DNA of 64,000 bases from NCBI GenBank assembly GCA_963842945.1, contig CAWJIM010000019.1, positions 672,001-736,000 on the forward strand, given 5' to 3'. Below are positions 24,207 to 41,595 of this stretch, piece after piece. This DNA comes from an uncultured Gemmatimonadales bacterium (GTDB taxonomy: Bacteria; Gemmatimonadota; Gemmatimonadetes; Gemmatimonadales; GWC2-71-9). Numbering within the stretch: the first letter of the stretch is position 1; the number at the start of each line of letters is the position of its first letter. The notes under the pieces are model-generated. The model was given only the letters and a program-made list of their open reading frames with translations, was not told the origin of the DNA and did not search any database. Position numbers and translations under genes: made by a program.

Positions 24207-25221
<1,015 letters not shown>

Positions 25222-25286: not shown

Positions 25287-25303
25287 GACCTTTCAGCCGG
25301 CGG

Positions 25304-26389
25304 TTACGCCACCGGGACGATCGGGTCCAGCAGATCCTCGAAGAAGTCGAACCCGCCGAGGAACACCAGATAGATCTCCTGGAGCGAGTGCAGCTCCTCC
25401 TCGCTCAGCGGCTCGCCGTCGGCGCCGGTGATCACCGGCTCAGCGCCCTGGGTCACGGTGATGGTCGCGAACGGATCGCCGTTCACCTCGACGTTGTAGG
25501 TCCCGGCATTGTCGGCCCAGTTGCCGACGATCGTCACCGTGCCGTGCGGGCCGCGCAGCTCCAGGCTCGAGGACACGGCGCTGGTGTTCATGTTCCACTC
25601 TTCCTCGAGGTCCATCCGGAAGTTGCCGCGGGTCGGCACGCTGAGCGCGTAGTCGAACGTGATGATGTTTTCGGAATTGAGGTGCATGTCGAGATCGAAA
25701 TTGACCCGGTCCTCACCGTTGCTCACGAACCCGGAGACGTTGATGGTGGCCGCAGTCTGGCTGGCTGTGGCGCCAACCGTGTAGTCGAGGTAGGTCACGT
25801 TGCCCGAGACCAGCTCGATCCTGATGCTGGCGGAATTCGTGGTCTGAGTGACCTCGACGTCGGCGTACCCGACTTCCTGCAGCGGCGTGACCGGCTGGCC
25901 GCTGATCGGATTCACCGTGTACACGATGAACCGCACCCCGTTCGAGGGCGCGCCGGTCCGGTCCGAGACCTCGTACTCCAGGGTCTCGGCGTTGCGGACG
26001 AAGGTCTTGCCGAGATGCTCCTCGAGAATCGCCGCCCGGCTCCCGACCGGCCGCATGCCGGCGGTCGGCACGGTGTAGAGGCGGGCAAGGGTGCTGGCAT
26101 ACTCCCGCGCGCCCGACTTGCCGGTCGCCATGATCTTGCTCGGCGCGGCGCGAAGGGCGACCGCCGCCGACGACTCGCCCAGCGTGGTGCTGATCGCCGG
26201 CATGGCGCTCTGGAAGCCGTACATCGCGTCGCTCTCGTACGAGGCCTCGATCGCGTCGATGTCGGACGAGGTCCCCGCCGGATCGAACGGCGCGTCGGGA
26301 GCGGTGGAGTCGTTCCCACCGCAGCCGGTCATGAGGCCGATCAGGGCCACGACCGCGAGGGGTCGCATTGCGTAATGCGGGACACGCAT
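25304..26389 (-). CDS. Hypothetical lipoprotein
   Basis: MRVPHYAMRPLAVVALIGLMTGC lipobox then GGNDSTAP; GGAGG RBS. Confidence 0.8.
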   Translation of the reverse strand: MRVPHYAMRPLAVVALIGLMTGCGGNDSTAPDAPFDPAGTSSDIDAIEASYESDAMYGFQSAMPAISTTLGESSAAVALRAAPSKIMATGKSGAREYASTLARLYTVPTAGMRPVGSRAAILEEHLGKTFVRNAETLEYEVSDRTGAPSNGVRFIVYTVNPISGQPVTPLQEVGYADVEVTQTTNSASIRIELVSGNVTYLDYTVGATASQTAATINVSGFVSNGEDRVNFDLDMHLNSENIITFDYALSVPTRGNFRMDLEEEWNMNTSAVSSSLELRGPHGTVTIVGNWADNAGTYNVEVNGDPFATITVTQGAEPVITGADGEPLSEEELHSLQEIYLVFLGGFDFFEDLLDPIVPVA

Positions 26390-26437: not shown

Positions 26438-26463
26438 CGTCGCAGGCCCACTTGCACGACCGG
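26438..26463. repeat. 26-bp direct repeat, copy 1
   Basis: cgtcgcaggcccacttgcacgaccgg identical to 33785..33810. Confidence 0.9.
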
Positions 26464-26522
26464 TGCAGGCGGGTGCGCGGGCTCGAGGTCGGCCCGGATT
26501 TCGGCCGGCCGGGAGGCGAGGG

Positions 26523-26538
26523 GCAACGGCCGTGCCGA
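26523..26538 (-). promoter_or_regulatory. Possible sigma54 (-24/-12) promoter for the lipoprotein gene
   Basis: Minus strand TCGGCACGGCCGTTGC matches GGCAC-N5-TTGC. Confidence 0.45.
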
Positions 26539-26547
26539 AAGGGAGGG

Positions 26548-26676
26548 TTACTTCTTGGTCACCGGGAGGCCGGCCTCGTTCCAGGCCGTCCAGCCTCCCA
26601 GCAAGGCCCTGGCCTTCTTCCATCCTGCCTGACGGAGCTCTCGCGCCACCCGGGCGCTTGTGGCTTCGTCCTTTCA
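26548..26676 (-). pseudogene. Displaced original 3' end of the antiporter-rhodanese gene (attR-like, copy C)
   Basis: TGA then KDEATSARVARELRQAGWKKARALLGGWTAWNEAGLPVTKK*; first 71 nt identical to the copy at 38581; tail has host-like GC-ending codons; no upstream gene body. Confidence 0.85.
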
Positions 26677-27285
26677 AATAGATGTTCCCAAACCACAAGG
26701 ATCGGTACGGGGTAAGTCGGTACGCTTCCGTTAGTTTCCGACAATGAACCGCGCTTCGGTCGAGACCGTTTCCTGTGCAAGCAACGGAGTAGCGGAGAGC
26801 AGCGGGCAGAACACCAGCAAGCTGGTTGATCTCACTAGCACTCCCGTTTGGGCGGTTGGCCTACACTGCTCCTGCCACCTTCGTGGGAACTAGGCGGGGT
26901 GACGTCGTTTGTGGCGCCCTGGAGCAAGGTGGACTTTCAGCCACGAACGGTCGCGGGACTCACGAGATGTCGCGGGGCGACCGGCCCATCGCGGCGATGG
27001 ACCGGGCGGACCGACTGATGCTTGGAGCAGTAGCGGGGATCACGACCCAAACGTAGACGCCGTTCCACTTCTACGATGTGGCGGCCCAGAGGATGGGGGT
27101 GCGGGAGGCGCGTCAAGTGCCCGAGCGAAGCGTCCCCGCGTTATCTCTAGAGCTTACCCTTGTTTCTGTACCAGCTACTTCGGGCGGCCCGAAGACTTAC
27201 GAGTTCACCGTGATGCAAGGGAGAGTGGAGTTCCTTAACGAGAAACCGTTTTAGCCCTTAGCTGGCATTCAGCTCGAACCCACAG

Positions 27286-27314
27286 CGGAATCTACGGACC
27301 GAGGGTCCAATGGG
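27286..27314 (+). repeat. 29-bp direct repeat, left of the copper module
   Basis: cggaatctacggaccgagggtccaatggg identical to 33320..33348. Confidence 0.9.
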
Positions 27315-27368
27315 GTCTGGGAGTTTCATGATTGCCCTCCCTACCGGGTATCACCCGGCATTTCGGCC

Positions 27369-27770
27369 TCACTCCGGCGGGTGATGAGCCGCATGATTGG
27401 TCGTGTCAGCCGTCGCATCAGGGCTCGGCATCGCCTTCCGCCCGGGTGCCGTTGAGTCTTTCATCATCCCCATCATGCCCCCACGCTCCATCATCTGATG
27501 CATGCGCTCCTGCATCGCCTTCCGCTGAACGACTAGCTCGTTTATGACGGCCGCCATGGACTGCACCTTCTGGTTGCCGCTTGTCCGATTCATCCGATCC
27601 ACAAGGCTGTCGAGACGGCGGTTGAGGGAATCCATCATCATCATCGACATCTGATTCTTGCCCGCGATTTCACGATGACCATCAGGAGTCGACGCCCCGG
27701 GCTGCTGCGCGGCAACCGTTGAGGCGCTCAAGACCAGAGCGGCGATGCCGCCGACTAGTCGTGACATCAT
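27369..27770 (-). CDS. Met-rich secreted protein, candidate Cu(I)/Ag(I) binder
   Basis: Signal peptide; MSMMMMD, MHQMMERGGMMGMM, HAAHH; last gene of the Cu-ATPase cluster. Confidence 0.7.
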   Translation of the reverse strand: MMSRLVGGIAALVLSASTVAAQQPGASTPDGHREIAGKNQMSMMMMDSLNRRLDSLVDRMNRTSGNQKVQSMAAVINELVVQRKAMQERMHQMMERGGMMGMMKDSTAPGRKAMPSPDATADTTNHAAHHPPE

Positions 27771-27797
27771 TTGTAGCCTCCGATTCGGTTTCCCAGC

Positions 27798-28106
27798 TTA
27801 CGTCTGGACCCGTGACCACCACACGTAGCCCCCCAACGCGAGCAGCAGCAGCCAACAGGTCCAGTACGCCCACACCGTCCAACGCGGTCTCGCCTCCCCC
27901 AGGGAAGTGTCCAGATGGTGCTTCTGGTACATGGCCAGCGCGTGCACCACTCCACCCACCACCAAGAGCGGTACCGCCATTGTCTCCAAGGCCTCCTTGA
28001 ATAGCAGGGCGAGGCCAGCTCCGAGCACACCAGCACCTAGACCGCCAAGCAGCTCTGTTCGCGCTCGCTCGCCGATGTACCTGCTGCTGGTCCGAAGCAC
28101 CGTCAT
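27798..28106 (-). CDS. Small membrane protein
   Basis: Three hydrophobic helices; GGVVHALAM; YWTCW. Confidence 0.65.
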   Translation of the reverse strand: MTVLRTSSRYIGERARTELLGGLGAGVLGAGLALLFKEALETMAVPLLVVGGVVHALAMYQKHHLDTSLGEARPRWTVWAYWTCWLLLLALGGYVWWSRVQT

Positions 28107-28240
28107 ACGCGCCTCACCAAGGAATCGACGGAAACGATAGCTCGGTTCTCATGAAGAACCGGTGAAGGTCGTGCGAGACTACCTTCAACGGTCACAGCCC
28201 TCGGCTGCACGGAAACCCACTGCAGCAGAGACATTAGCGG

Positions 28241-30421
28241 CTAGATAGCCGAGCGGCGCAGCAGCTGGGCATTCACGGCCACGATGATTGTGCTCAGTGA
28301 CATCAGGACTGCTCCAATAGCAGGCGAGAGCAGGATGCCTTGCCGTGCCAATACCCCGGCGGCAAGCGGGATCGCCACCACGTTGTAGCCTGCCGCCCAC
28401 CACAGGTTCTGGACCATCTTCCGGTAGGAGGCCCTGCTGAGCCGCACGATGCGCGGCACGTCTCTGGGGATCGCTCCGAACCAGCACGATGTCCCCAGCC
28501 TCAACTGCGACGTCGGTGCCAGCGCCGATGGCCACGCCAACATCGGCCGAGACCAAGGCCGGGGCATCGTTGACCCCGTCGCCCACCATGCCGACCCTTT
28601 CACCGGCTCGCTGAAGTTCTTGAATCTTGTTGACCTTGTCTTGCGGCAAGACCTCGGCGAACACTGTGTCGATGCCCAGCTCGGCAGCCACGGCCTCCGC
28701 CACCGGGCGTGCATCGCCGGTCAGCATCACCACTCTGATGCGCTGGTCGTGCAGCTCCTCGACCGCTGCCTTGGATTCCGGGCGTACCACATCCGCCACG
28801 ATGAACACGGCCAGCGCTTGCACGCTATGCTCACTGCCCGCTTCCTCGGCCAGGAAGATGGCGGCCTGTCCTCGCCTCGCGGCCTGATCCATGGCTGTGC
28901 GCAGGGAATCGGGAACAACAACAGAGCGCGCCTTGAGCAACGCCGGGCCCCCTATCAATAGCGTCCGACCATCAACCCGCGCGCTGACCCCTACGCCGGG
29001 AATGGCGCGGAAGTCGGTGGCTGGCGGCGAGACGATTCCCCGTTCCTTGGCAGACCGGACGATGCCCTGTGCGATGGTGTGCTCCGAGTCCCTCTCGACC
29101 GCTGCTGCCAGCTGCAGCGCCTCCTCGTCGGTAATGCCACCAGCGGTGGCGATGCCGACCACACCGAACTCGCCCCGCGTCAGGGTTCCGGTCTTGTCGA
29201 AGACCATGGCGGTGAGATTGCGGGCCTCCTCCAAGCCGCGCCGGTCCCGCACCAGGAGCCCAGCCCGTGCGCCCAGCGTGGTGGAGATGGCAATGACCAG
29301 CGGCACGGCCAGGCCAAGGGCATGGGGGCAGGAGATCACCAGCACGGTGACCAGGCGCTCGACCGCGAACGCGGGATCGCCTCGGATGGTCATCCACGCC
29401 ACGAACGTCGCCGCCCCCGCGACGATGGCCGCAATGGTGAGCCAGAATGCCGCCCGGTCAGCCAAAGCCTGCGCCCGCGAGCGTGAGGACTGCGCCTGTT
29501 CGACCAGGCGCATGATGCCAGCGAGGGCGGTCTGTTCGCCCGTGCCGGTGACGCGGACACGTAGCGACCCAGCACCGTTTACCGTTCCGGCGATCACACG
29601 GTCGCCCGGGCCTTCTTCACTGGTCGCGACTCGCCAGTGATCATGGACTCGTTGACCTCGCTCGCACCCTCCTCAACTACGCCATCGGCCGGGATACTCG
29701 CGCCGGGGCGTACCAGCACGAGGTCTCCGACCTTGAGCGCGCTGATCGGGACTTCCTCGACCTCCTCACCCGCCACTCGGAGCGCGGTGTTCGGCAGGAG
29801 CTTCGCCAGCTCACGTAGGGCACCCTGGGCCTGGGAAATCGACCGCATCTCGATCCAGTGGCCCAGGAGCATGATCGTGACCAGCGTGGACAGCTCCTCC
29901 CACAGCGGCATGCCCGGATAGCCCAGCGTCACGGCCGCGCTGAAGACGAACGCGACTGAGATGGCCAAGCCGATCAGCGTCATCATGCCGGGAAGCCGGG
30001 CGCGCAGCTCACGCCAGGCACCCTGGAGGAACACGAGTCCGCCGTAGAGGAACACCGCCGTCCCGAACACCGGCGCGATCCACTGTTGGCCGGGCAGATT
30101 GGGTGGTGTGTACCCGAGCGCCCGGGGCAGCATGTGGCCCCAGCACGAGCGTCGGAAGGGTGAGCGCCAGCGAGATCCAGAACTTGTCCCGGAACATCGC
30201 TACGCTGTGACCCGCATGTTTGTCGTGGCCTTCGTGCCCTGGATGCTCATTGTGTCCGCCGTGGCCCAGGTGGCCAGCGTGGCCTGTCATTTCTGGGTGT
30301 TCGGGGTGGCCCACCGCGACTGGCTCCTCGGCCATGGCACCGTGAACGTGATCATGAGCATGCCCCGGGGCGGTTGCCCATCGCCATTCCCTCCGGATGG
30401 CCGATCGGTGTGGTCCCTCAT
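28241..30421 (-). CDS. copB: Copper-exporting P1B-type ATPase (CopB/P1B-3-like); several frameshifts
   Basis: His-rich N-terminus, [26 protein letters not shown] (CPH), [22 protein letters not shown] and MSLST, spread over ORFs 30009, 29594, 28185, 28241. Confidence 0.9.
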
Positions 30422-30947
30422 GTCGCACTCATCTCCCTGGAAGTCTGCGCTCGGGCGCTCCCGATCCTGCCCCACGGCTTGTACACCGACAGTGCGGTGA
30501 CGGTGAGCAAGACCAGAAGGCCACCCACCGCATGCACCACGAGCTGGATGCGCAACAGCCTGAAGTCGCCGGTGGACAATGTCGTGGCCACTGCGATTCG
30601 GGCCATGCGACTCACGTTCGGGATGTGCATCAACAAGACGCCCGTGGCGACCGTCGTCAGAACGAGCTTCGCCACGATCCAGTAGTGACGGAACAGCCCC
30701 CACTCCGTCCCAAGTGCCTGAACGACTCCTGAGATCAGGGTGGCGAGGCTCGACGGAATGATGACAGCCCATCCAATCGGCTCCATGCTCCGATAGGCGG
30801 CGCGTGCCATGTCGTCGTCTCGGCTGACGATGCCGACAACCGCGAGGGACAGGTAGCGGCAGCCGCGCCGAGCCAGCCAACCGATACGGTGACGTGCGAC
30901 GTCAAGACGAACTTGCGTAGGCGAGACGACATCATTCGTGGGCTCAT
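30418..30947 (-). CDS. DUF2269-like membrane protein; frameshift near 30860
   Basis: LRKFVLTSHVTVSVGWLGA; LGTEWGLFRHYWIVAKLVLT; LSVYKPWG. Confidence 0.7.
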
Positions 30948-30997
30948 AAGACTCACCTCAGTGCTGGTTCCGCACGGTAATGGTTAGGCTTGACGGC

Positions 30998-32471
30998 CTA
31001 CTCGTGCTCGTGATCGGGCATTACACCTCTGGGCATGCCCTCCTCCGGGTTCTCATCCCGATCTCCAGCGTGCGCCCGCTGCAGCAGCGTCGGCCGTAGC
31101 CGGACGTACAGCGCGAGGCCAGCAGGTGTGCGGGTGCCATAGGTGTCCTTGAGATCCTGGGGCACGAGGTTGAGCGAGCCCCGGAGACCCAGGCCGAGAC
31201 TCGCGCCGCCGTACTGCACGACCTCCCGCACATAACCGAGCACGAGGCTGGACACGTTGAAGCGGGTCTCTGGGTTGATACCCGGCACGACCAGCTCCTC
31301 GGCGCTTTTCTGTACCCACTCGGCCCGGCCGAAGATGCTGTTCCGCTGGTCGAGCTGCAGGTTGGTCTCCAACAGGAGGCTGTGCTCGAACCCCTGCGAC
31401 GGCTCTCTCGGCACCGTGTGCTTGTTTGCGCCGTAGACCAGCGCGCTGGCCCAATCGCCATCGCGGGCGATTCGCCTGGTGTACAGGATAGACGCACTGA
31501 GCCGGTGCTGGTTTTCGTCGGGGTGCAGCTCCTCGGGACTCTTGAGGTAACCGTAGCTGGCCGCCATGCTCCAGTGCGGGGTCGGATTCGCTGTCAATCG
31601 CCCGCCGTAGGAGTCGAGCGCGCCGAAGTCGAAGTCGTAGCGGTCGTCATCGGGCTCGCGGCCCTGGAAAAGCGTGCCTTCCACCTGCACGGTGCGCGTG
31701 AATACGCCCGCCGTGACGACACCGTAGGTAATGTGGGTCGCGTCTTGCCAATGGTGCCCAAGTGGGGCGAACGGGTCGTTCTGGGCCGATGGACGGTGCA
31801 TGTAGGCCACCGGCCCGATGGCGGGCTCGCCAACAGGGGCCGCGAAGATTGAGACGCCGAGATTCCTCCCGACGGGCACCTCGTAGCGCGCGGAAAGCTC
31901 CATGAACAGATCGTGCGGGTGCTGCCGATCCCGGAGCGGCTCGCCTTGGTACGACTCGCCGGTCTGAAGCAAGCAGCGGGTAGCCGCGAGCGCCGACGGT
32001 GAGCGGTTCAGCGCTGAGCATTCCATGCAGGTGGAGCATACCGCGCCCGACCGGACGCATGGCCATGAGCATCGCCCAGTTGGTGCTGCCGACCTGGTCG
32101 TCACCCCGCACTGTGCCTTGGTGGTCGTAGTACAAGGCCACATCTCCATGGACCATCAGCGTCCAGCGGTCGGCCATGAAGTGGTAGGCACGCATCGGAG
32201 ACGCGTCGGGTAGCCATGACGTGCCGGAGCCCATCCTGGTCATGGGAATACCGAGCGGGCGCGGCGGCATCCCCATGCCCGGCATCTGCCCGGTGTTGGT
32301 GGTGTCACGCATGGCCATGGAGTCGGCTGACGTGTCTGCGTGCTCGGGCTGGTGGTGATGCTCGTGCTGCTGGGCACCGGCCACGGACCGAGCCCAGAGC
32401 AGGGCCAAGGCCAGCATCAGGAGCGCGTGCGGGTGCCCGGCCGCTTTTCGCCTGGCCAGTCGGTCAGGCAT
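30998..32471 (-). CDS. Putative outer-membrane protein with His/Met-rich N-terminus; frameshift near 31975
   Basis: Signal, QQHEHHHQ, GSGTSWLPDASPM, QTGESY, DRQHPHDLFMELS, LGHHWQDATHI; amphipathic beta-strand pattern. Confidence 0.75.
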
Positions 32472-32525
32472 CGTGATCCTCCTAGTCGTGGTGACCCTGG
32501 TGCCCGTGCGGCCCAGGTGAGCGGA

Positions 32526-32939
32526 CTAGGCGATCAGTTGTGGGGGTGGAGTATCCGGTGGAGGAAACGGCGGAGTGGGCCTGCCGACGGGCGAGATCGA
32601 CCGCCACCCGGTGGCTAGAAGGTCATCAACTGTCGCACGCGATGGTGGGACCGCCGTGCTGGACGACCCGGTGCATGGCGAAACCTGGGCGCACTCGGAC
32701 GCGGGACAGTGGGCGCACCCGTGATCGTGGCGCTGGCTCCAAGATTGAAGGTCGTGTTCGTGTGCCATCGAGGACGAGGCTGCATGCTGCCCGGCCCGCT
32801 CGTGTTGGGCGCAGTGGGGCCGTTGCAAGGCGTCCACCCCGACGCTCGGCGTGGCTACGATGCCCAGGGCGAGCATGAGCAGACGAAGGACCCGAGAGGG
32901 CCACGAGTTGGGTGTTCCGACCATCATGATTGGGACCAT
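32526..32939 (-). CDS. Small His/Cys-rich protein (DUF2946-like architecture)
   Basis: TM segment, HCAQH, HDHGCAHCPASEC..C and Pro-rich end PDTPPPQ, upstream of the OM protein gene. Confidence 0.55.
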   Translation of the reverse strand: MVPIMMVGTPNSWPSRVLRLLMLALGIVATPSVGVDALQRPHCAQHERAGQHAASSSMAHEHDLQSWSQRHDHGCAHCPASECAQVSPCTGSSSTAVPPSRATVDDLLATGWRSISPVGRPTPPFPPPDTPPPQLIA

Positions 32940-33196
32940 AGGCGCACCGACAATAAATCGCAAATGGAGCACGCCACCCCGGTAGCGTCCGGTTTTGACT
33001 GTAACACCTCCTATCTGTAGGTTGGTGGTGGCAAGCATCCCCGCCGGGGAGGACCTATGGCAGGGGCCAACTGCGGTTGCACCAAGGGCTGTTGCGATAC
33101 AGGGTGTTGCTGCGGTACCAGCGCCTGCGAGTGCGGGTGAGCGCGGCGGGCGACTGAGCGAAGGCCGGGGAGCGTCCCCTGCCTTCTTCCGTTCTG

Positions 33197-33295
33197 CTAC
33201 TCCACCCGCGCCGTCGCGGGGTCCATGAGCGCGAAGATGTCCTTCACCGTCCAAACCCATAGGGCATCGCGCCCCGATGGCCACCGGGCGTTTTG
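33197..33295 (-). pseudogene. Degenerate C-terminus of an IS1-like/DDE transposase
   Basis: Across shifted frames KTP-VAIGA...VWTVKDIFALMDP, resembling the TPAMAAG..DHVWT.EEI..L terminal motif; recognised by eye only. Confidence 0.35.
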
Positions 33296-33319
33296 TATAA
33301 GTCAAAACCGGACACCAAC

Positions 33320-33348
33320 CGGAATCTACGGACCGAGGGTCCAATGGG
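33320..33348 (+). repeat. 29-bp direct repeat, right of the copper module
   Basis: Identical to 27286..27314; contains GAGGG RBS and the ATG of the next ORF. Confidence 0.9.
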
Positions 33349-33511
33349 AGCAAGATCGAAGGGGAACCCACCCCGGAAGCGGGGACCGAAGCCAGACACC
33401 TTGGTCCTGCCCGGCAAGTGGGAGAAGAACGTCGGGAAGGCCCTCAAGAAGCCACCGCCCAAGGCCAGCTGGCCCAAGCCACCGAACAAGAAGGGCCGGG
33501 GCGGCAGGTAG
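33344..33511 (+). CDS. Small Lys/Pro-rich basic protein (55 aa)
   Basis: MGARSKGNPPRKRGPKPDTLVLPGKWEKNVGKALKKPPPKASWPKPPNKKGRGGR; RBS upstream and hairpin plus T-run at the end. Confidence 0.55.
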   Translation: MGARSKGNPPRKRGPKPDTLVLPGKWEKNVGKALKKPPPKASWPKPPNKKGRGGR

Positions 33512-33527
33512 CCCCGGCCTTCGTTTT
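33494..33527 (+). terminator. Rho-independent terminator candidate
   Basis: ggccggggc-N8-gccccggcc followed by ttcgtttt. Confidence 0.55.
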
Positions 33528-33550
33528 GACTTCTTGCCTAGCCCTGTGCG

Positions 33551-33694
33551 TCAAGTACCTACTCCTGGTTTTTTCACTACTTGTAAACCCGCTTCGTTCC
33601 ACGCGATCCAGCCACCGACCAGCGCTCTGGCCTTCCTCCATCCCGCCTTTCGGAGCTCTCGCGCCACCCGGGCGCTTGTGGCTTCGTCCTTTCA
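33551..33694 (-). pseudogene. Second displaced 3' end of the antiporter-rhodanese gene (internal att-like, copy B)
   Basis: TGA then KDEATSARVARELRKAGWRKARALVGGWIAWNEAGLQVVKKPGVGT*; first 44 nt identical to copies A and C. Confidence 0.85.
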
Positions 33695-33784
33695 GGAGAA
33701 CGATCTACTAACACCAAGTGTCCGCGGATCCTGCCCGTCGGCCTTGTACTGGATCGGGAGCGGCAGGACACGCGGATCGTCGGG

Positions 33785-33810
33785 CGTCGCAGGCCCACTT
33801 GCACGACCGG
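33785..33810. repeat. 26-bp direct repeat, copy 2
   Basis: Identical to 26438..26463. Confidence 0.9.
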
Positions 33811-33902
33811 AAATACCTTTCCGCTTTGCTCTGGCCGCTGCCAATGCCCAGCACTATCCTTTCTCAACTTCCCATTCCGACGTCCAATGCGACAGGCCCT
33901 GA

Positions 33903-36843
33903 GTGGCAGCGCTGCCTGACGACCTGCAGGCGGCACTCGCCGACCGCTACAGAATTGACCGCGAGCTGGGTCGCGGTGGCATGGCCACGGTCTACCTCGT
34001 CCACGACCTGAAGCACGATCGCCGGTCGCTCTCAAGGTGATGCACCCAGAGCTTGCCCCCTCCTCGGGCCTGAACGGTTCCTGCGGGAGATCAGGTTCGT
34101 GGCGCGGCTTCAACACCCCCACATCATCACCGTGCTGGACTCCGGCGAAGCCGCCGGGCAGCTCTGGTACACGATGCCCTACATACGGGGCGAGACCTTG
34201 CGCCAGCGACTGCGCCAGGAAGTGCAGCTGCCGGTTGAAGCGGCCGTGGACATCGCTCGGCAGGTGGCGCTCGCGCTCGACTACGCGCACCGCGAGGGGG
34301 TGGTCCACCGCGATCTGAAGCCTGAGAACATCCTCCTGACAGAAGACCAGGCGCTAGTCGCGGACTTTGGAGTGGCCAAGGGGCTGGAGGCAGGCGGCCG
34401 GGCGCAGCTCACCGAGACGGGGATGGCCGTAGGTACCCCCACCTACATGTCCCCCGAGCAAGCCAGCGGCGGGGCAGTGGATGCTCGCTCAGACGTCTAC
34501 GCACTCGCCTGCGTGCTTTACGAAATGCTCGCGGGCGAACCGCCCTACACTGGCTCCACGCCCCAAGCCATCTTCGCCAAGCGAGTCTTGGAGCCGGTGC
34601 CGCACGTGCGCACGCTGCGTCAGAGCGCGCCGGAAGGGGTCGAGCAGGCGATCACGAAGGCGCTCGCGACGGTCCCGGCGGATCGGTTCCAGAGCGCCGC
34701 AGAGTTCGCCCGGTCGCTCATGGTGGCACCTCCGACGGAGGTAGTGGCCGCCACTCCCGCCGCGCCTCAGGTTACTCCAAAGAGCGAACGGCAGGGAATG
34801 CCGCGCCGGTTCCTGGCTCTCGGCCTGGCGACGATTCTCGCCCTGGGAGCCGGGGGCGCGTTGCTGTTGCGCTCTAGGGCCACCCCTGCGGCGCTTGATG
34901 CTGACCTTGTGGCTGTCGCCCCGTTCGACGTACTCTCGCCCGGCCTTGAGCTGTGGCGTGAAGGTCTGGTGGATCTCCTGGCGCGCAGCCTCGACGGTGC
35001 GGGCCCACTCCGCACCGTCTCCCCGACGGTAGTCATCCGCCGGTGGGATGGCCGGGCGGACCGATCCTCAGCTGAGGCGCTCGCACGGCGCACGGGAGCC
35101 GGACTCGTTATTTACGGGTCGGTCGTGCCCGAGAGCCGCGATTCGGTTCGGGTAACAGCCGCCGTACTCGACGCCGGACGCGCCGAGGCCGCCGCCGAGG
35201 CCGAGGTGCGCGGCCCCGCCGACCAGCTCGCACGGCTCGGCGACTCCCTTGCCCTGCGATTGCTCGCTGAGCTTGGGCGCGCCCGACCGCTGAGCGCGGC
35301 GCGCTCGGGCGGAGTCGGCTCGCGCTCACTGCCGGCTGTCCGAGCCTTCCTGCGGGGGGAACAGTGGTTTCGGCGCACCGCGTGGGACTCGGCCCGGGCG
35401 AGCTATGAACGTGCGGTTGAGCTGGACAGCACTTTCGCGCTCGCGTATTGGCGGCTCGGTGCCGTTCGCGACTGGCAAGATGGCTTCAGTGGACTCCCTC
35501 TCGCGGGCCTACTATCGCCTCGCTGGCGAGCGCAACCACGGGCTCCCACCCCGAGAGAGCCTGCTGATGACGTTCGACTCATTGAAGGGGACCCTCCTCG
35601 ACGAGGGCTTTCTCTCCGACTCAGCCTCGGAGCAGCAGGTGCAGCGGCTGTTCCGTATTGCCGAGGAGACGACGCGACGGTATCCGAATGACCCAGAAGG
35701 TTGGGTGGCGCAAGGCGAGGCGGGAGTGCACTTCGGTGCGGGCCGAGGGGTAAGCGATGAGACAACCCTCAGCGCGTTTGCCCGTGCCATCGCGTTGGAT
35801 TCGGCCTACGCTCTGAGTTACATCCACGCATGGCAGCTGGCAGCGTCGCTCGACGACTGGCCTACGGCCCGCCAGTACGCACTGGGCTTTCTCGCCCTAC
35901 GCCCGGGGCGGAAAGAGGCGATCGCTGCGCGGACGGCCATCCACATACTCAATCGGCCCCCGGCGGGCGAGGTAGGCCGCCTGTTGGACACAATTCCCCT
36001 GCACGTCCTTATCGCTGTCGTCAACGCGCTTCGTAGCCACCACCGACTCCGAGGAGGTCGGGGTGGCAGTCGGTCGGGCGTTCGTCGCCGCGCCGCCGAC
36101 CCCAGACGGGCCAGAACTAGATAGAGAGACTCGGGAGGCTCTTTTTGCGGCCACCCTCGCCTATCGTGGGCATCTTCGGGAAGCCTCCCGGCTCCTCGCC
36201 CGCCACCCCGGGGTCATGGCGTGGGGTACGTTCACCGAGTTGGCGCTGCTAGGGCTGATACCGGCGGACACTGTGGACGCCGTGTTCGAGCGCCAACTTC
36301 GCGAGGGTCCTACTCGCCATGCGATCGGGCACCACCTCCGTCTCGGTTTCCCGCTTCCATGGTGGGCCGTTAGGCGCGACACTACCAGGCTCAAGCGCTA
36401 TGCCTCGCGTCTCAGCTGGCGAGGACCGGCGGAGAACGTGCCGCTATTGGATCGCTATCTGCATGCGGCCTCGAACGCCTACCTGTCGCTTGCCCGAGGC
36501 GACTCGGCGGAGGCGGCGGCTCGCTTCCAAGCCCTCCCGGCAACGGTGGGAATGGTGTGGTACGAGCGGCTGACGCTCGCACGCTTGCTTGCGGCGCTCG
36601 GGCGAGAACGCGAGGCACTGGACGTGCTAGACCGCGAGTTCCCGTCTGGGGCTTGCCATCTCTGCACGTGGCACGTGGGCCTTGGAGCGGGCGCGCTTGG
36701 CCGAGAAACTGGGCCAGCCCGAGAAGGCCCGTCACTGGTACGGCTTTGTAGCCCGGCTGTGGCGGCACGGCGACCCTGAGCTGCGGCCTGCCGTGGACGA
36801 AGCGCGTGAGGCGCTGACGCGACTTACCGGCGAGCCGCAGTGA
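33903..36843 (+). CDS. Ser/Thr protein kinase with TM helix, TolB-like and TPR regions; multiple frameshifts
   Basis: LADRYRIDRELGRGGMATVY, HRDLKPEN, DFG, GTPTYMSPE, VAVAPFDV, LDSTFALAYWRL, ends WRHGDPELRP; ORFs 34099, 35405, 36063. Confidence 0.88.
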
Positions 36844-36890
36844 CCTGTACCTGCTTCTTCGTTGGGTTTGGCTACTGCATCGCGTGCCCG

Positions 36891-37487
36891 CTACTCAGGC
36901 TCGTGGCCGTGATGCAAGGATCGCAGAGGGGGCTGGAGCGCCATGCGGCGGCGAAGCTCCATCAAGGCGATCATGAGATCGCCGCTCTTGGCCATCTGAT
37001 CTCTTGCGATCGTCCGTTGTCGTTCGGCCAATGAGCGCGATTCGGCGGCATCCGCACGCGCTTGCCGCGCCTGCCGACGCATCGCTTGCGAGCTGAGGAC
37101 CAGCGGCGCAAGCGTTCGCACCAACTCCTCTGGCTCGAACGGCTTCCGCAGGAAGGGCACCGGAAGGAGGTCGGGTGGGAGGTCGACCGCTGCCGACATG
37201 GCCACGACGGGTAATGCAGGGCGGCATTCCATGAGTACCGCGATCAATTCGGAGCCGGATACGACCGGCATCTTCAGGTCGGTCAGGACCACGTCGAGCA
37301 GCTGAGCCTCGTCCCGCTCAATCACCCGAATGGCATCCTCGCCGTCGGCGGCCTCGATCACGGAGGTTCGCTCCAGCTGCAGCATCCTGCGGAGTGATCG
37401 GCGCAGCGATGGATCGTCGTCCACGATGAGCAAGGTCGCTCCGTCGGGGATCTGGAAGCACGTGGTCTGGGTATCCACATTGCTCAT
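36891..37487 (-). CDS. Response regulator receiver with C-terminal coiled coil
   Basis: LIVDDD, VVLTDLKMPVVSG, FLRKPF. Confidence 0.85.
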   Translation of the reverse strand: MSNVDTQTTCFQIPDGATLLIVDDDPSLRRSLRRMLQLERTSVIEAADGEDAIRVIERDEAQLLDVVLTDLKMPVVSGSELIAVLMECRPALPVVAMSAAVDLPPDLLPVPFLRKPFEPEELVRTLAPLVLSSQAMRRQARQARADAAESRSLAERQRTIARDQMAKSGDLMIALMELRRRMALQPPLRSLHHGHEPE

Positions 37488-37594
37488 AATGCGCTTCCGT
37501 GTCCAAGCTGCCCTGACCACCAAAGTATGCACTCGGTGCCCCGGATGCACAGATGTGTTGCCGATCACAGAGGGCGGGCGGAAAGGCTCTATCT

Positions 37595-37792
37595 ATGGCC
37601 ACATGTCGGCAACAGACTCACCTTCCGATCCGCCCGACCGGTCCCGCGTTCTCCGCTGGTACCAGCGAGGATCTCCGCCAGCACTCCCGCACGCTCCGCC
37701 AGCACGCACGCCGGCTGATCGAGAGCAGCCGCGAGCTTCGGGACCGCCTAGGCAGCTTCCTCAAGCCACCCCCGCCCACCCAGTCAGCCTGA
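37595..37792 (+). CDS. Possible small coiled-coil protein
   Basis: SEDLRQHSRTLRQHARRLIESSRELRDRL heptad pattern; start uncertain. Confidence 0.35.
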   Translation: MATCRQQTHLPIRPTGPAFSAGTSEDLRQHSRTLRQHARRLIESSRELRDRLGSFLKPPPPTQSA

Positions 37793-37868
37793 CCCCCACG
37801 CTTCGCCGTGCGTCAGGGGCGGCCCGGAGACAGCGCGGATCAGATGATCCGCGTTTGTCCTTTCGGGG

Positions 37869-38261
37869 TCATGCCTCCCTTCGCATTGGTCGCTCCGCCA
37901 TGGCCAGCGCCACTGATTCCAGCAGCGCCCCAATGCTGAACGGTTTGCGGAGCGTGGGCACCGCCTCAGCGTGCGGTCCGATGGGCCTGGCGAGATCGTC
38001 CAGGTGGAGGATGGGAAGATGGGGGAACAAGCGCCGCAAGTGGCCGATCAACTGTTCACCACTCATGTGCGGCATGTAGCTGTTGGTGAGGACCAGATCG
38101 AACGAGATACCCGCCGTCTTGGCCGCCGTCAGACCTGCCTCGCCATCCCCTACTGCAACGACCTCGTAGCCCGCTTCCTCTAAGGCGCGCACGATGAGTG
38201 CGCGGACGGCGGGCTCGTCGTCCACCACAAGAATGCGGGACGGTCGGTCGGTCGGCGGCAT
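37869..38261 (-). CDS. Single-domain receiver with Asn at the phosphoacceptor position
   Basis: ILVVDDE, DLVLTNSYMPHMSG, LRKPF. Confidence 0.85.
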   Translation of the reverse strand: MPPTDRPSRILVVDDEPAVRALIVRALEEAGYEVVAVGDGEAGLTAAKTAGISFDLVLTNSYMPHMSGEQLIGHLRRLFPHLPILHLDDLARPIGPHAEAVPTLRKPFSIGALLESVALAMAERPMRREA

Positions 38262-38443
38262 GGGCCGGTCGGTGCGGTCAGGGCAAGTAATCCGATATTC
38301 TACGCCGGACACTCAGCGCCGTCCATGGCCCAAATTGCCTATACCTCCCGGGCCGACAGCCCCAGCCCTAGTGCTCTACTGCACGCCGCCGAAGGGTGCA
38401 GTAGAGCACAAGCGTGTTCAATCCCGCTCAAACCAAGGGGATC

Positions 38444-40060
38444 CTATTCTGCCGGTTTGGCAGACACTGGTAACCCCGCCTCATTCCACGCGTTCCAGCC
38501 ACCGACCAGCGCCCTGGCCTTCTTCCATCCTGCCTGACGGAGCTCTCGCGCCACCCGGGCGCTTGTGGCTTCGTCCTTTCAGGTACAGTAGAGGACCAGT
38601 GTCGCGTCGGGATCGAGCCTCCGCTCCCGCGCGAGGCGCACCGCGTCGTCGGGCGGCATCCGGATCGCGTCGCGGGCGATCGCGGCGGAGTCGCGATAGC
38701 TCCGCTCGGTCCGCACGTCCAGCAGGGTCACCGGCTCCCCGCGCTCCTGCAGGTCGCGAAGCTCCTCGATGGTGATCTTCTCCGAAAGCTGCGGCGCTTC
38801 GCCCGGGGCGGGCCCGAACGAGATCTCCTCCGGCTTCTCCGGCCGGGGCGCGGGCGCCGGGGCCTGCTCCGATCGCGCGCGGCGGAGAAAAATCGCGATG
38901 CCGGCGCCGTGCACCACCACCGATAGCAGGACCACGAGGCAGGTGATCTGGAACAGGCGCACGGATCCCTCGACCCCCGCGAACACCGGCAGCAAGGCCA
39001 GGAGCAGCGTGCTCAGGCCGCGCGGCCCGAGCCACGCGATCAGCCGCCGGCTCCGCGGCTCGACCCCGCCCAGCCGCAGCACCGGGATCAGGACCGCCGT
39101 GCGCAGCCCCAGCGCGAGCACCGCGAAGGCCAGCGTCAATCCGTCCGCCACCTGGAAGCCGGTCCAGATCACCGAGGCACCGAACGCCACGAACGTGAGC
39201 AGCAGGAACATCTCGGCCGAGGCTTCGCCGTAATCCAGGAAGCAATCGCACAGCTCCACGTCCATCGCGGCCACCATCAGCCCGCCGGCGAACGCCGCGA
39301 GGAACCCGCTGCCGCCCACCGACTCCGCGGCCGCGAACGCGGTGAACGCCACACCCAGCGCGTAGAGCGACTCGTAGTCCCGGCGCACCCCGACCTTCGA
39401 TCGCACCCGGTCGAGGAGGGCGATGGCGACGTAACCCACCCCCACGCCCAGCGCCGGCCCCAGGATGAAGAGGCCCATCGCGCGGCGCGAGACATCGGCA
39501 TCGGACGCGCCTCCCGCGCCCAGGGCCAGACTGGCGAGCACCACGACGGGGAGGAGGATCACGTCGTTGCTCCCGCTCTCGAGTCGGAGGGCCAGGCGTG
39601 CGGGGGGCGGGAGCGCCGGACTCCGGACCAGGGTCCGCAGGAGGACCGGGTCGGTCGAGGCCAGCGCGGCGCCGAGAATCGCGGCGCCGGCGGGCGGCAG
39701 GCCGAGCAGGAGCCAGGCGGCGAGGGCGATGAGCGCGGCCGGCAGGATCGTGCCCGGCCCCAGGATGAGCAGCGCGAGCCGCCGCTGCTCCCGCACTTCG
39801 CCGATGTCGACGGAGATGGCGTCGCTGAACAGCACCAGCACCAGGGCCAGCGTGGCGAGGACCTCGAGCGACTCCGACTCGAGCGAGAACTCCACCACGC
39901 CCAGACCGGCGGGGCCCAGCATGGCGCCGAGGAGGAGGAAGATCGCGACCTGGGGCACGCCCGACCGCTCGACCGCGCCCGACAGCAGCGAGGCGGCGAT
40001 GATGACGACGCCGATGAGCGCGAGCGCGGCGACGAAGGGATCGTGGAACATGGTCCTCAT
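38444..40060 (-). CDS. CPA1 cation:proton antiporter fused to a C-terminal rhodanese domain, predicted selenocysteine at TGA 38581-38579
   Basis: LVLFSDA, ASTDPV, LRLESGSND, WLGPRGLST; rhodanese LLDVR...LVLYCT*KDEATSARVARELRQAGWKKARALVGGWNAWNEAGLP continues in frame for 44 residues past TGA to TAG at 38444. Confidence 0.85.
38550..38581 (-). promoter_or_regulatory. Candidate bacterial SECIS hairpin directly 3' of the UGA
   Basis: UGA AAGGACGAA GCCAC AAGCGCCCGG GUGGC: GCCAC/GUGGC stem 9 nt after UGA; invariant in all three copies; not tested with a SECIS model. Confidence 0.5.
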
Positions 40061-40112
40061 TATGGCAGCGTACTGGCGGTCACCGCCAGCCGCATGGTAA
40101 CCTGGATTCCTG

Positions 40113-41595
40113 ATGCCCACGAGCGAGCCGACCGCCACCGCCATCCTGCTCACCATCTGCGGAATCCTGCTGCTGGTGAGCGTGCTCTCCAGCCGCGCGT
40201 CCCAGCGGATCGGGGTCCCGATCGCGCTGTTCTTCCTCCTCGTCGGCATGCTGGCCGGGTCCGAGGGGATCGGCGGGATCCCGTTTGCCGACTACCGGCT
40301 CGCCTTCCGCATCGGGGCGGTGGCGCTGGCGCTCATCCTCTTCGACGGCGGACTCAACACCCCGCTGGACGTGGTGCGCCGAGTCTGGGCTCCGGCGGGC
40401 GTTCTCGGCACGGTCGGGGTCCTGCTCGTCGCGGGGCTGGTCGCGATGGTGGCACGGCTGGGCGGACTGCCCTGGCCCGCCGCGCTGGTGCTCGGGGCCA
40501 TCGTCTCGTCCACCGACGCGGCCGCCACGTTCGCCGTGCTTCGGGCCAGCGGGCTTCAGCTCAAGCGGCGGGTGGCCGCGACGCTGGAGGTCGAGTCCGG
40601 CGCCAACGATCCCGCCGCGGTCATCCTGACCACCACGCTCGCCTCCAACCTCCTCGGCGCCGGGGCACCTCGGCCTGGGCGAGATGCTCGTCGAGATCGT
40701 CACCCAGCTGGTGATCGGGGCCGTGGTAGGCATCGGCGCCGGCTACGCCGGCCGCGCGCTCATGGCCCGGCTCCAGCTGATGACCGGCGGCCTCTACCCG
40801 GCGCTGATGCTCGCGTTCGGCTTCCTCTCCTTCGGGGTGGCAACGCTGGTCGAGGGGAGCGGGTTCCTGGCGGTGTATGCCACGGGGATCGTGCTCGGCA
40901 ACGGTCCCCTGCCCTATCGCGCCGGTCTGCTGCGCATCTTCGACGCGCTCGCCTGGCTGGCCCAGATCGGGATGTTCCTGCTCCTGGGGCTGCTGGTGTT
41001 CCCCTCGCGCCTGGGCGAGATGGCGGGACTCGGGCTCGGCATCGCACTGCTGCTGGCGATCCTGATCCGGCCGCTGGTCGTCGCGCTCTGTCTGGCACCG
41101 TTCCGCTATTCGGCACGGGAGATCGCCTTCATCGGCTGGGTGGGCCTCCGCGGCGCGGTGCCGATCGTGCTGGCCACCTACCCGGTGCTGGTCGGTGCGC
41201 CGGGCGCGGACCGGATCTTCCACCTCGTGTTCTTCATCGTGGTGGTCGGCGCCATCATCCCCGGCGGCACCGTGGCCTGGGCGACCCGGCGCCTCGCCCT
41301 CGAGTCGCCCCAGCCGCCCGCGCCGCACGCCCTCCTCGCCATCGAGTCGCGGGTGCCGCTCGAGGGCGACCTGATGTCCTTCTATATAGACGATGCGCTG
41401 GTGGTGTGCGGGCTGAGGCTGGACGAGCTGGATTTCCCCGAGGGCGCCGCGGTCGCGCTCATGGTCCGCGGGGACCGGCTGGTGGCGCCCAGGGGCAGCA
41501 CCCGACTCGAGCCGGGCGACCACGTGTATGTGGTCGCCCAGGAGGAGGACCGGCCGTTCATCCAGCTGATGTTCGGAAGGCCGGAGGAGGATTGA
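40113..41595 (+). CDS. cvrA: K+/H+ antiporter NhaP2/CvrA type with TrkA-C domain; frameshift near 40670
   Basis: GMLAGSEGIGGI, LILFDGGL, SSTDAAATF, LEVESGANDP, WVGLRGAVPIVLATYP, PRGSTRLEPGDHV. Confidence 0.88.

Follow-up and report, generated by a model that had tools for sequence, protein, structure and literature searches.

Displaced 3' ends of a predicted selenoprotein gene in a Gemmatimonadales bacterium: a putative array, variable between strains and possibly joined enzymatically at the UGA-SECIS boundary

How did a gene of a soil bacterium have its ending replaced and its old ending pushed downstream by inserted DNA without a moving enzyme of its own? This question is raised by a locus in a 64,000-nucleotide window (the whole stretch of DNA analysed) of an uncultured Gemmatimonadales bacterium. 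A preliminary description of the window had noted a 44-nt minus-strand block occurring three times in the same orientation. Exact copies, with 0 mismatches, were present in direct orientation at 38581-38538 (copy A), 33694-33651 (copy B) and 26676-26633 (copy C), while 0 of 100 dinucleotide shuffles matched the 44-mer. Similarity between the copies reached past the 44 nt, to 107-118 nt at 86-92%, and the first ~72 nt were the same in copies A and C. The rest of the 4.3-Mb assembly contains just one further 44-mer, with one mismatch, on the homologous gene of contig C21.

The gene body (38582..40249, minus strand) encodes a CPA1 cation/proton antiporter and the N-terminal portion of a rhodanese domain, the last residues being ...LVLYCT (Pfam Na_H_Exchanger, 2.3e-36; NCBIfam NF003716 and NF041203). 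Its real start codon probably lies downstream of 40249. The in-frame TGA at 38579..38581 (minus strand) is the predicted Sec codon of residue U557 in the motif LYC-T-U. Its position is unchanged in each of the 58 public loci, and C21, G094, G187, G146 and G023 keep it too; LYC-x-TGA followed by an open, conserved tail was found in all 58 public Gemmatimonadales loci. Because the codon before the TGA differs between lineages (GCG, GCC, GCT, ACC, ACT, ACG, ATG), perfect identity between lineages starts at the TGA, and it then runs for ~41-44 nt.

A predicted SECIS hairpin begins 16 nt past the UGA, within the coding sequence; its apical loop contains G and U, and its stem consists of 5 bp plus 5 interrupted pairs. 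Among 55 distinct sequences, gathered with a search pattern that permitted broken pairs, stem pair 34-44 was G-C in 45 and A-U in 10 and was broken in 0. Pairs 21-56 and 24-53 were preserved through wobble changes, and compensatory changes that kept the hairpin paired altered two amino acids (SARVAR to STRVVR). At least 40 nt of the block are near-invariant across the order, an estimate that is partly inflated because the loci were gathered with a pattern. Two tRNA-Sec genes, selA, selB and selD were found in the assembly, a mixed bin in which these genes may belong to different organisms. In-frame conservation, covariation and the Sec machinery indicate that the TGA genuinely encodes Sec and that a SECIS hairpin follows it, in agreement with the preliminary description. 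Bacterial SECIS elements of the fdhF type are hairpins just downstream of the UGA, and the hairpin here likewise lies there, in coding sequence; it differs from them in its unusually high nucleotide conservation, and an Rfam search with it matched no family.

Among the NCBIfam families, NF041203 (rhodanese_LYCAU) matched the domain best; the alignment covered positions 21-126 of 126 and scored 95 bits, under the 115-bit cut-off. The gene works like a member of NF041203 and, as a fusion, is no equivalog by score. The LYC-x-U motif and the hairpin after the UGA are present here too, but the domain here forms the C-terminus of a CPA1 antiporter. A review gives NF041203 in a table as 'Rhodanese-like form 3, CxU' (PMC13188914); its available passages contain 0 occurrences of 'antiporter' and 0 of 'gemmatimon'.

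Upstream of the TGA, local-alignment scores among copies A, B and C fell within the range of shuffled sequences, and a tblastn search with the gene product found no remnant of the gene body in the 1.7 kb upstream of copies B and C. The identity of the three copies therefore begins at the TGA, to within the 2 nt that had been stated; A and B agree 2 nt beyond this boundary. Each copy continues as an intact tail, all on the minus strand. Copy A (38444..38581), attached to the gene body, consists of the 44-nt UGA-SECIS block (38538-38581) and a further 44 codons closed by a stop. Copy B (33551..33694) consists of the block, a diverged 47-codon tail and a stop, and copy C (26548..26676) of the block and a 42-codon tail; both are orphans, since the gene body adjoins copy A only. 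The tails end, before the stop, in ...GLPVSAKPAE (A), ...GLQVVKKPGVGT (B) and ...GLPVTKK (C), and the translations agree with those described earlier. At 42-47 codons they are one and the same rhodanese end with few replacements; synonymous to non-synonymous codon differences were 9:3 for A-C, 12:6 for B-C and 7:5 for A-B. No conserved partner gene after the tails was found in Pfam and NCBIfam ORF searches of the units. Downstream of the 44-mer, GC3 was 0.89 in C, 0.67 in A and 0.53 in B, compared with 0.93 in the gene body. Tail C, the farthest copy, had been described as host-like in its GC-ending codons; it is the native C-terminus, and the attached one is not native, which upholds the proposed swap of the C-terminus. 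By composition, tail A is foreign past its first 72 nt.

Compared with a strain of 97-98% identity, 11,905 bp are inserted exactly between the gene body and its native UGA-SECIS-tail, and this insert is real. It consists of two units, one of 4,887 bp and one of 7,018 bp. In each, a UGA-SECIS-tail copy of its own comes first and unrelated sequence last, abutting the next TGA. Owing to the tail copy at the start of each unit, the gene is whole and has a foreign C-terminus, and two older tails stand downstream without a gene body. The unit 1 cargo (X1, 33811..38443; Pfam and NCBIfam annotation; GC 0.62-0.72) comprises response regulators at 37872-38312 and 36894-37592 (minus strand), ORFs without assigned function at 35976-36776 and 35294-36121 (plus strand) and a TPR-containing Ser/Thr kinase at about 33893-35688 (plus strand). 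Paralogous kinase-unknown-unknown modules sit elsewhere on contig C19. At 33785..33810, 90 nt upstream of copy B, lies D4b, a 26-nt exact copy of the native 26-mer D4a, with dissimilar flanks on both sides.

In unit 2, a Lys/Pro-rich 55-aa ORF (33344..33511, plus strand) converges with tail B, and a terminator scan placed a predicted bidirectional terminator common to both at 33492-33521. The only homologue found of this ORF was at G023:C214:5247-5425 (84% nt). D2b (33309..33348), a 40-nt direct repeat of which 29 nt are exact, spans the 5' leader and ATG of the ORF and contains the hairpin GGACC-CTC-GGTCC; its partner D2a lies at 27275..27314, and the long-form junction there was present in run X5 record 9. 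Between them, a 6-kb segment (27315..33308, minus strand) carries a five-gene block colinear with G146:C50 (L028 5543-10539; 74-75% nt): ORFs without assigned function at 32529-32943 and 31001-32525, a heavy-metal P-type ATPase at 28188-30199 (TIGR01525, 3.4e-118) and small ORFs at 27801-28148 and 27372-27797. The far end of the unit (26677..27274) is 598 nt without a convincing ORF that abuts copy C. It had no Pfam or NCBIfam match and no homologue among 200 family genomes; it occurs in L090, L091 and run X7 record 26, each 186 nt shorter. Beyond copy C follows D4a (26438..26463), which L078, L090 and L091 share. Next comes a predicted lipoprotein gene (25304..26389, minus strand; signal peptide with an LMTGC lipobox); in many of the 58 loci, a homologue of it likewise follows the tail. 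The locus is anchored by a conserved MoxR-type AAA ATPase gene (24207..25221, plus strand; Pfam AAA_3, 1.2e-63), with ~80-84% nt identity in most loci extending to it. The D2 (29 nt) and D4 (26 nt) exact direct-repeat pairs flank nested segments, and neither is SECIS-related.

The preliminary description had predicted an empty site in which YCT-TGA runs straight into the GLPVTKK tail and the lipoprotein gene, and such a site exists. In the public contig L078, the gene body (97.3%) passes straight into tail C and its flank (98.05%), and the attached tail is 100% identical to the variable part of copy C. The locus is likewise uninterrupted on contig C21, which is colinear, and in the relatives G187 and G023. 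Recombinant and shortened forms of the array occur in other samples. The metagenome contigs L090 and L091 (JGI samples Ga0247825 and Ga0247822) hold a 798-bp form running from TGA to TGA, in which the attached tail is of type A at positions 45-88 and of type B from 89 on, save one A-type base at 99; the evidence for this A/B hybrid consists of these two contigs, both assembled from short reads. An A×B crossover that removed X1 would leave such a tail, and the 798-bp form accordingly has the look of a deletion product. Short forms lack the 6-kb segment, and arrays with and without its operon both exist in nature. The junction of the X1 end with core B was recovered in the independent run X1 (record 4, 33662-34184), and run X7, L090 and L091 contain that of the X2 end with core C. 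Independent support covers these two orphan junctions and not the passage from tail A into X1; in the contig data, a junction closing a circular form would look the same as one within the array. As the two junctions of cargo with TGA are different, there were at least two joining events, which bears out the claim that the site was hit at least twice. L078 is possibly an A×C revertant, so the empty site may not be the earlier state.

An integrase next to the repeat had also been expected at occupied sites, and there was none beside any of the three repeats. Neither unit contained a gene for an integrase, other recombinase, transposase, phage or plasmid function (Pfam, 148 six-frame ORFs; NCBIfam, 57). 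In whole-genome searches with stop read-through, PF00589 matched at 4 sites, each more than 600 kb away from the locus, and PF00239 and PF00078 were not found. No further occupied site was detected in the 58 genome loci or in 201 family genomes (200 besides this one), and a metagenome scan for non-attached copies returned only this lineage, in 2 contigs; among the loci and metagenomes scanned, orphan copies were found in no other lineage. No viral contig matched the block. The cargo consists of chromosomal-type, lower-GC Gemmatimonadales genes with orthologues or paralogues in related genomes, including response regulators, a kinase and the operon of the heavy-metal ATPase. The observation reported in the preliminary description is therefore confirmed, and its interpretation as tandem integrative islands at a SECIS is partly supported: the insertion at the UGA and the displaced tails hold, while integrative elements of the usual kind are not supported, no mobility gene in the units and no other occupied site in the scanned genomes and metagenomes having been found.

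Tentatively, and at somewhat short of an even chance, we favor the view that displaced 3' ends of the selenoprotein gene form an array that varies between strains, and that an enzyme made at least two joins at the UGA-SECIS boundary. Each unit would enter as UGA-SECIS-tail-cargo by recombination within the 44-72-nt block, which is nearly invariant across the order and therefore the sole stretch where diverged DNA still matches. Both orphans start at the same nucleotide despite unrelated upstream DNA, so we favor site-specific cutting and joining at the UGA boundary, by an enzyme that may act in trans or have since been lost. The units would then be non-autonomous or eroded islands, and later host homologous recombination between repeats would delete and reshuffle them. 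No recombinase was identified anywhere, so it is the two coincident boundaries only that point to the site-specific step. A family using a near-universal site should, however, leave other occupied sites, and none appeared in the scanned genomes and metagenomes; the D2 and D4 repeats point to a general short-homology process instead of a SECIS-specific enzyme, and the isolated D4b near a junction resembles filler DNA from a repair event.

Displacement could also have proceeded without a dedicated recombinase, which we consider possible but rather doubtful. Units would excise as circles when the host recombines two repeat copies, and would re-enter any Gemmatimonadales genome by a single RecA-type Campbell crossover in the 44-72-nt block, the SECIS serving merely as the sole perfect identity between diverged Gemmatimonadales genomes. 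The units and their surroundings without a recombinase, the interlineage identity that begins at the TGA, the chromosomal DNA of relatives as cargo and the 6-kb operon between 29-40-nt repeats, natural in both forms, are consistent with this, and the copies visibly recombine (the hybrid tail of L090/L091; A equal to C for 72 nt). A circle would, however, be expected to close anywhere, whereas two unrelated unit ends both close at the TGA and neither unit keeps a trace of the gene body; moreover, the first circle requires an already duplicated donor, and a 44-nt anchor is short for RecA-dependent integration. Break-and-copy repair is unlikely. Here, recurrent breaks or stalled forks at the UGA-SECIS hairpin would yield an end that copies a homologous foreign or paralogous gene tail with its downstream genes and is then end-joined. 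This would explain the fixed junction without an element-encoded enzyme and D4b as templated filler, and the units do resemble the native downstream region of another copy: the homologue of the 55-aa ORF lies in the same neighbourhood in G023, and G146 has a kinase-TPR gene downstream of the tail. Yet the stem has just 5 bp and 5 interrupted pairs, no sign of breakage was seen there, such scars occur in 0 of 58 other loci, and searches did not find the donors.

That each unit is, or recently was, self-mobile with its own integrase targeting the SECIS is very improbable. Such islands would account for the repeats of the target's 3' part, the far-end position of the native copy, the lower GC and a sister strain with an empty site. 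However, ORF scans and the read-through genome search gave neither an integrase nor a piece of one, unit 2 has a form of just 798 bp from TGA to TGA, and neither another occupied site nor a viral contig was found. We regard as scarcely credible an assembly artefact in which the shared block led the assembler to chain alternative haplotypes or paralogous loci. In its favor, the bin is a mixture (140 kb of C19 and C21 colinear at ~73%, two tmRNAs, two tRNA-Sec genes), the GC of C19 shifts at about 548-550 kb, and the assembly has frameshifts, even in selA and selB. Nevertheless, a repeat with the gene body always on one side cannot yield orphan junctions, both of these recur in independent runs and JGI contigs, and L078 (k141_...) crosses the 72-nt repeat into tail C, for which a k of 141 needs spanning reads. 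Equally remote is the decay of three full genes in a row by deletion of two bodies. Some MAGs carry several attached copies (in CAWEMG01, three contigs with one each), but two independent deletions must then end at the same nucleotide, no body remnant lies upstream of B or C, the 97-98% identical strain is empty, and full tandem genes were found at none of the 58 loci.

Genomic islands and prophages of the tyrosine-integrase type enter the 3' ends of tRNA, tmRNA and protein genes and carry a replacement 3' fragment. The array resembles them in its direct repeats derived from the target's 3' end, its sharp 5' edge, an intact gene with a borne-in end, the displaced native end, tandem stacking, an empty site in a sister strain and differing base composition. 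It is unlike them in having no integrase or mobility gene, ordinary chromosomal operons as cargo, a 798-bp form and no further occupied site found, and in its target, a UGA-SECIS block in a coding region; a literature search for such a block as an integration target gave none among the matches listed. The polymorphic toxin genes rhs and cdiA form C-terminal displacement arrays with orphan C-terminal modules downstream. In these, new ends arrive horizontally and push old ones downstream, and homologous recombination switches or deletes modules, with no dedicated recombinase known to take part. In the present array, too, a complete gene precedes orphan 3' ends, which are truncated on their 5' side and start at a conserved junction, and main and orphan copies recombine. 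Unlike those of rhs and cdiA, the tails here differ by few residues, have no immunity-like partner and show no sign of diversifying selection. The junction here is an RNA recoding signal, not a protein motif, and the orphans start at the same base.

The 44-nt minus-strand sequence was found three times in the window, in one orientation and without a mismatch, starting at 38581 (copy A, attached to the gene body), 33694 (copy B, orphan) and 26676 (copy C, orphan), as the preliminary description had reported; it was absent from all 100 shuffled sequences. The repeat family reached 107–118 nt at 86–92% identity, with spacings of 4,887 and 7,018 nt, and copies A and C were identical over approximately 72 nt. 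Past the 44-mer, pairwise identity of the tails was only 68–82%, as distant as tails from different species. All three tails were still open, and synonymous differences outnumbered non-synonymous ones (A–C 9:3, B–C 12:6, A–B 7:5; small numbers), which fits a history of divergence within working genes before the tails were brought together. GC3 was 0.93 in the gene body, 0.89 in the native tail C, 0.67 in the attached tail A and 0.53 in tail B, and tail A was a mosaic, its first 72 nt matching C exactly and the remainder foreign. The three tail sequences, their contrast in codon usage and the attachment of a single copy were all as first described. Among 201 sampled family genomes, the 44-mer at up to three mismatches occurred only in the source assembly and two congeners, once each. 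Exact direct repeats of at least 24 nt within 20 kb were rare in the 4.3-Mb assembly (162 merged segments, mostly clusters within paralogous genes), and five of these segments lay in the 12-kb array region.

The attached frame (38447–40249, minus strand) comprised 601 codons, with the real start probably later. Profile searches assigned its product a Na+/H+-exchanger domain, followed at the C-terminus by a rhodanese domain, and the TGA, within the motif LYC-T-U, was residue 557. Among NCBIfam families, NF041203 ("rhodanese_LYCAU, rhodanese-related (seleno)protein") fitted the rhodanese domain best, scoring 95 bits where the cut-off is 115; the alignment reached the end of the model only with the tail read through the TGA. 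This family is tabulated as a CxU selenoprotein in a 2026 review (PMC13188914), and rhodanese-related sulfurtransferases are counted among selenoproteins in an older survey (PMC1088965). A degenerate block pattern detected 58 stretches in species-representative genomes, nearly all labelled Gemmatimonadales or Gemmatimonadota and one Chloroflexota. Every one of the 58 loci had LYC-[A/T/M] immediately 5′ of the TGA, an open, conserved tail 3′ of it, and one tail only; LYC-[A/T/M]-TGA with an open tail was likewise present in C21, another contig of the source assembly, and in the relatives G094, G187, G146 and G023. In a 56-sequence alignment (55 distinct rows), one pair of the upper stem GCGCC/GGCGC was G-C in 45 rows, A-U in 10 and broken in none, and the pattern had permitted broken combinations at this pair; the remaining block columns were near-invariant in part because the pattern itself had fixed them. 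In the lower stem, the only third-position changes were ones retaining G-U pairs. The A-U variant alters two amino acids (SARVAR to STRVVR), so that the RNA structure is preserved at a cost to the protein. Sec machinery was found in the assembly, namely two tRNA-Sec genes, selB, selA and selD. The conserved LYC-x-TGA, the covarying hairpin and this machinery make the reading of the TGA as part of a UGA-SECIS signal well supported. Automated annotation will end the gene at the TGA and overlook the fusion selenoprotein as well as the orphan tails.

Several further loci are of note. The selD gene (C19:381780–382700, on the contig of the window) carried one in-frame TGA and probably encodes a Sec-containing selenophosphate synthetase. 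At the public locus L036 (approximately 10001–10140), the tail left the conserved frame after ...GGWAA, reflecting either an indel error or a genuine frameshift within the last 20 codons. The metagenome-assembled genome CAWEMG01 had three contigs (L034, L040 and L068), each with an attached gene copy and a different tail; these are true paralogues or a strain mixture.

C19, of which the window makes up positions 672001–736000, was compared with C21 and with public contigs. Approximately 140 kb of C19 was colinear with C21 at 66–83% identity, and in C21 the MoxR ATPase gene, lipoprotein gene, tail and antiporter gene were contiguous. The preliminary description had predicted an empty-site strain, and one was found: in L078 (DATLHD010000230.1, 2,201 nt), from a near-identical strain, YCT-TGA runs directly into the native GLPVTKK tail and the region upstream of the lipoprotein gene. 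Bases 771–2201 of this contig matched window positions 38582–40012 within an alignment of 97.3%, and bases 1–770 matched 25907–26676 at 98.05%. The contig name starts with k141, suggesting an assembly k above the 72-nt repeat, so a jump across the repeat is not expected. The insert measured 11,905 bp, and most of it had a GC content of 0.60–0.69, against 0.70–0.75 in the flanks; one stretch at 34750–35500 reached 0.72. A further single attached copy in an uninterrupted locus was observed in the unpublished genome G187, with the same tail in the public locus L063, and no conclusion depends on G187 alone. The two cargo–TGA junctions, the empty site and the foreign tail support the structure first proposed, with insertion at the Sec codon in at least two events and replacement of the tail.

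Logan contigs from four public soil or rhizosphere runs of four studies were aligned to window positions 25000–41000. In run X1, a 525-nt contig (33662–34184, 15 differences) joined copy B to the end of unit 1, the segment from A to B. In run X7, a 787-nt contig at depth 49.7 (33648–33338 to 27302–27168 to 26981–26647) joined a short unit 2, the segment from B to C, to copy C; it lacked the 6-kb stretch flanked by the D2 repeats as well as 186 nt. Run X6 contained a similar short form, and a contig of run X5 crossed the long-form junction at D2a. These run contigs end inside the shared block, so that the cover is of these junctions and does not extend to the continuity of body and tail A; parts of the insert uncovered in some runs were not counted as evidence. 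A metagenome scan was targeted at non-attached copies: matches with G as the second base of the Cys codon, 5 nt ahead of the TGA, were excluded, so that attached copies were skipped. With this filter, which would miss approximately one quarter of orphan copies and any with an altered block, the scan returned two contigs only, L090 and L091. Their order was body, block, tail, small ORF, D2, 135 nt, 305 nt, block, tail C and lipoprotein gene, with 798 nt from TGA to TGA.

Each variable position of the L090/L091 tails was classed by the matching window copy. The attached tail was A-type (not B) at 45–69, A- or B-type (not C) at 72–93 and B-type from 89, with one A-type base at 99, and the orphan copy was C-type throughout. 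A crossover between A and B within their shared 18-nt stretch, deleting unit 1, would give exactly this hybrid tail. A C × B origin would require a crossover within a 2-nt window. The 798-bp form is thus, judged from these sequences, most simply a derivative of the three-copy array, and the empty site could be a revertant through A × C recombination in the 72 identical bases; both readings come from two short-read contigs of two JGI samples (Ga0247825 and Ga0247822), in which assembly chimera via the repeat is possible. The empty, 798-bp and 11.9-kb forms provide a natural series for testing nucleotide-exact placement of DNA without a mobility gene.

Unit 1 (4,887 bp) contained tail A, two response-regulator genes, two unknown ORFs and a Ser/Thr kinase gene with TPR repeats; kinase-unknown-unknown modules were found elsewhere on C19 too. 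Unit 2 (7,018 bp) began with tail B, a bidirectional terminator and a convergent 55-aa Lys/Pro-rich ORF, followed by a 6-kb five-gene block including a heavy-metal P-type ATPase gene, colinear at 74–75% with an intact block on another contig of the congener G146. For the 55-aa ORF a single homologue was found (window 33344–33511 against L095 1504–1671, 84% nucleotide identity), situated within a few kb of that MoxR neighbourhood in the congener G023, directly before a gene for a 317-aa multi-pass membrane protein. The 6-kb block was bracketed by D2, a 40-nt direct repeat (29 nt exact) spanning the leader and ATG of the small ORF. D4b, a 26-nt exact copy of the native D4a, lay 90 nt upstream of copy B, and no similarity was detected on either side beyond its 26 nt. 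The last 598 nt of unit 2 had no homologue among 200 family genomes. No donor was found for the 644-nt end of unit 2 (one of 201 genomes matched, the source assembly itself) or for unit 1 at 35700–38443 (2 of 401 matched, the source assembly and a paralogous response-regulator match in G247; only two candidates were scored per genome). The nearest public tails showed 74–80% identity in the variable part.

Outside the insert, an approximately 90-nt palindromic element at 24044–24137, between the upstream gene and MoxR, looks REP- or REPIN-type and matched, in both orientations, several other places on C19 and locus L033. The MoxR and lipoprotein genes converge on a perfect 19-nt inverted repeat with a 1-nt spacer at 25248–25286. 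This repeat is a probable bidirectional terminator, mistaken for miRNA precursors in Rfam scans. Known RNA families in 24000–42000 were limited to chance miRNA-like hairpin matches far under the gathering scores.

The bin was mixed, with two tmRNAs, two tRNA-Sec genes and 6% contamination. The GC content of C19 shifted from 0.64 to 0.70 at about 548–550 kb, and the colinear region comprised C19 at approximately 548–750 kb (GC 0.70) and C21 at 215–336 kb (GC 0.65). Probably the bin combines two related organisms, or else C19 is chimeric. The family matches of selA (C2:138515–139839) and selB (C2:8832–10665) were broken into two or three segments lying in different frames, which points to frequent single-base indel errors in this assembly; independent contigs differed from the window by 1-nt indels at 30143, 31974, 32559, 32617 and 34020, among others. 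Assembly error, rather than decay, may therefore account for the splitting of the ATPase gene, the 481-aa gene and the kinase gene.

Searches for mobility genes in the insert were negative. The 148 stop-to-stop ORFs of ≥55 aa in 26300–38700 were searched with Pfam, and 57 of them, picked by length and position, with NCBIfam; only the families already named were detected, and none was a mobility family. A genome-wide six-frame read-through search gave four tyrosine-recombinase matches, none less than 600 kb from the locus, and no serine recombinase in the assembly. RNA-mediated copying from a UGA-cut mRNA was rejected, with no reverse transcriptase in the 87%-complete assembly, as was IS200/IS605-like (HUH) single-strand transposition with the SECIS hairpin as left end, because the last 96 nt of the units folded like shuffles (z 0.15 and 0.86). 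The sole Y1 transposase gene of the assembly was on C21, away from the locus. In both C21 and G023, this single-copy IS200-like gene (C21:326712–327050; G023:C214 approximately 4370–4890, L095 625–1143) is located upstream of the MoxR neighbourhood, at a distance of a few kb; the equivalent position in the window lacks it. The tail-to-MoxR space ranged from <2 kb to approximately 8 kb among other lineages, and no recombinase was found in these gaps in 10 lineages (69 ORFs). In L027 (G146:C44, 5419–11172), L069, L089, L071 and L060, 2–8 kb of differing ordinary genes lay between tail and lipoprotein/MoxR (kinase-TPR, Band_7, MFS, response regulator, DUF1003, amylase); this region is variable even with a single tail. 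No viral contig carrying the block was found.

Two conclusions are firm. DNA of lower-GC relatives was joined at least twice exactly at the body/UGA boundary, each piece led by a UGA-SECIS-tail of its own, and the gene persists with a swapped C-terminus, the older tails piling up as orphans. For the joining step, we favour, at somewhat less than even confidence, a site-specific cut and join at the UGA boundary, as in 3′-end-targeting islands, by a putative enzyme absent from the units. No similarity was detectable 5′ of the TGA among A, B and C (local alignment of the last 60, 150 or 400 nt, with scores within shuffle distributions), and tblastn of the gene product against the 1.7 kb upstream of B and C gave nothing meaningful and no gene-body remnant. 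Site-specific cutting is favoured by the finding that the ends of both units, unrelated in sequence, directly adjoin one and the same nucleotide without any gene-body trace. Decayed tandem paralogues are hardly credible as an origin of the array and poorly supported, and the same applies to an assembly artefact.

Host recombination of circular units is possible, if rather doubtful; in its favour, homologous recombination among the copies is visible, no recombinase was found here or at any other site, and there are the D2 and D4 repeat pairs, unrelated to the SECIS block. Break-and-copy repair is unlikely, and the isolated 26-nt filler (D4b) and a cargo resembling "someone else's downstream region" are the features in its favour. 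Self-mobile islands, the original proposal, are very improbable and poorly supported, and the label "integrative elements" could not be upheld, there being no mobility gene in the units.

Between lineages, the codon before the UGA varies and the next 41–44 nt are essentially fixed, so the block is the only long perfect match between genomes of otherwise approximately 73% identity. We tentatively propose that the block, frozen by its codon and RNA-signal duty, might serve as an order-wide landing pad, at which small non-autonomous units of SECIS, tail and cargo would hop between diverged Gemmatimonadales, through host recombination alone or a putative Sec-codon-cutting enzyme, each hop rewriting the C-terminus. 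If this is true, a recoding signal doubles as a recombination site, and a signal of translation can become a fixed point of genome rearrangement. The selenoprotein would then outlive repeated insertions only as each insert supplies a working UGA-SECIS-tail, and the extreme conservation of the block may itself admit foreign DNA between genera. No description of insertion at a SECIS was found among the papers listed in a literature search that covered few subscription journals. With respect to known systems, the array, seen in one lineage only and at a target not found described before, is a case of 3′-end displacement.
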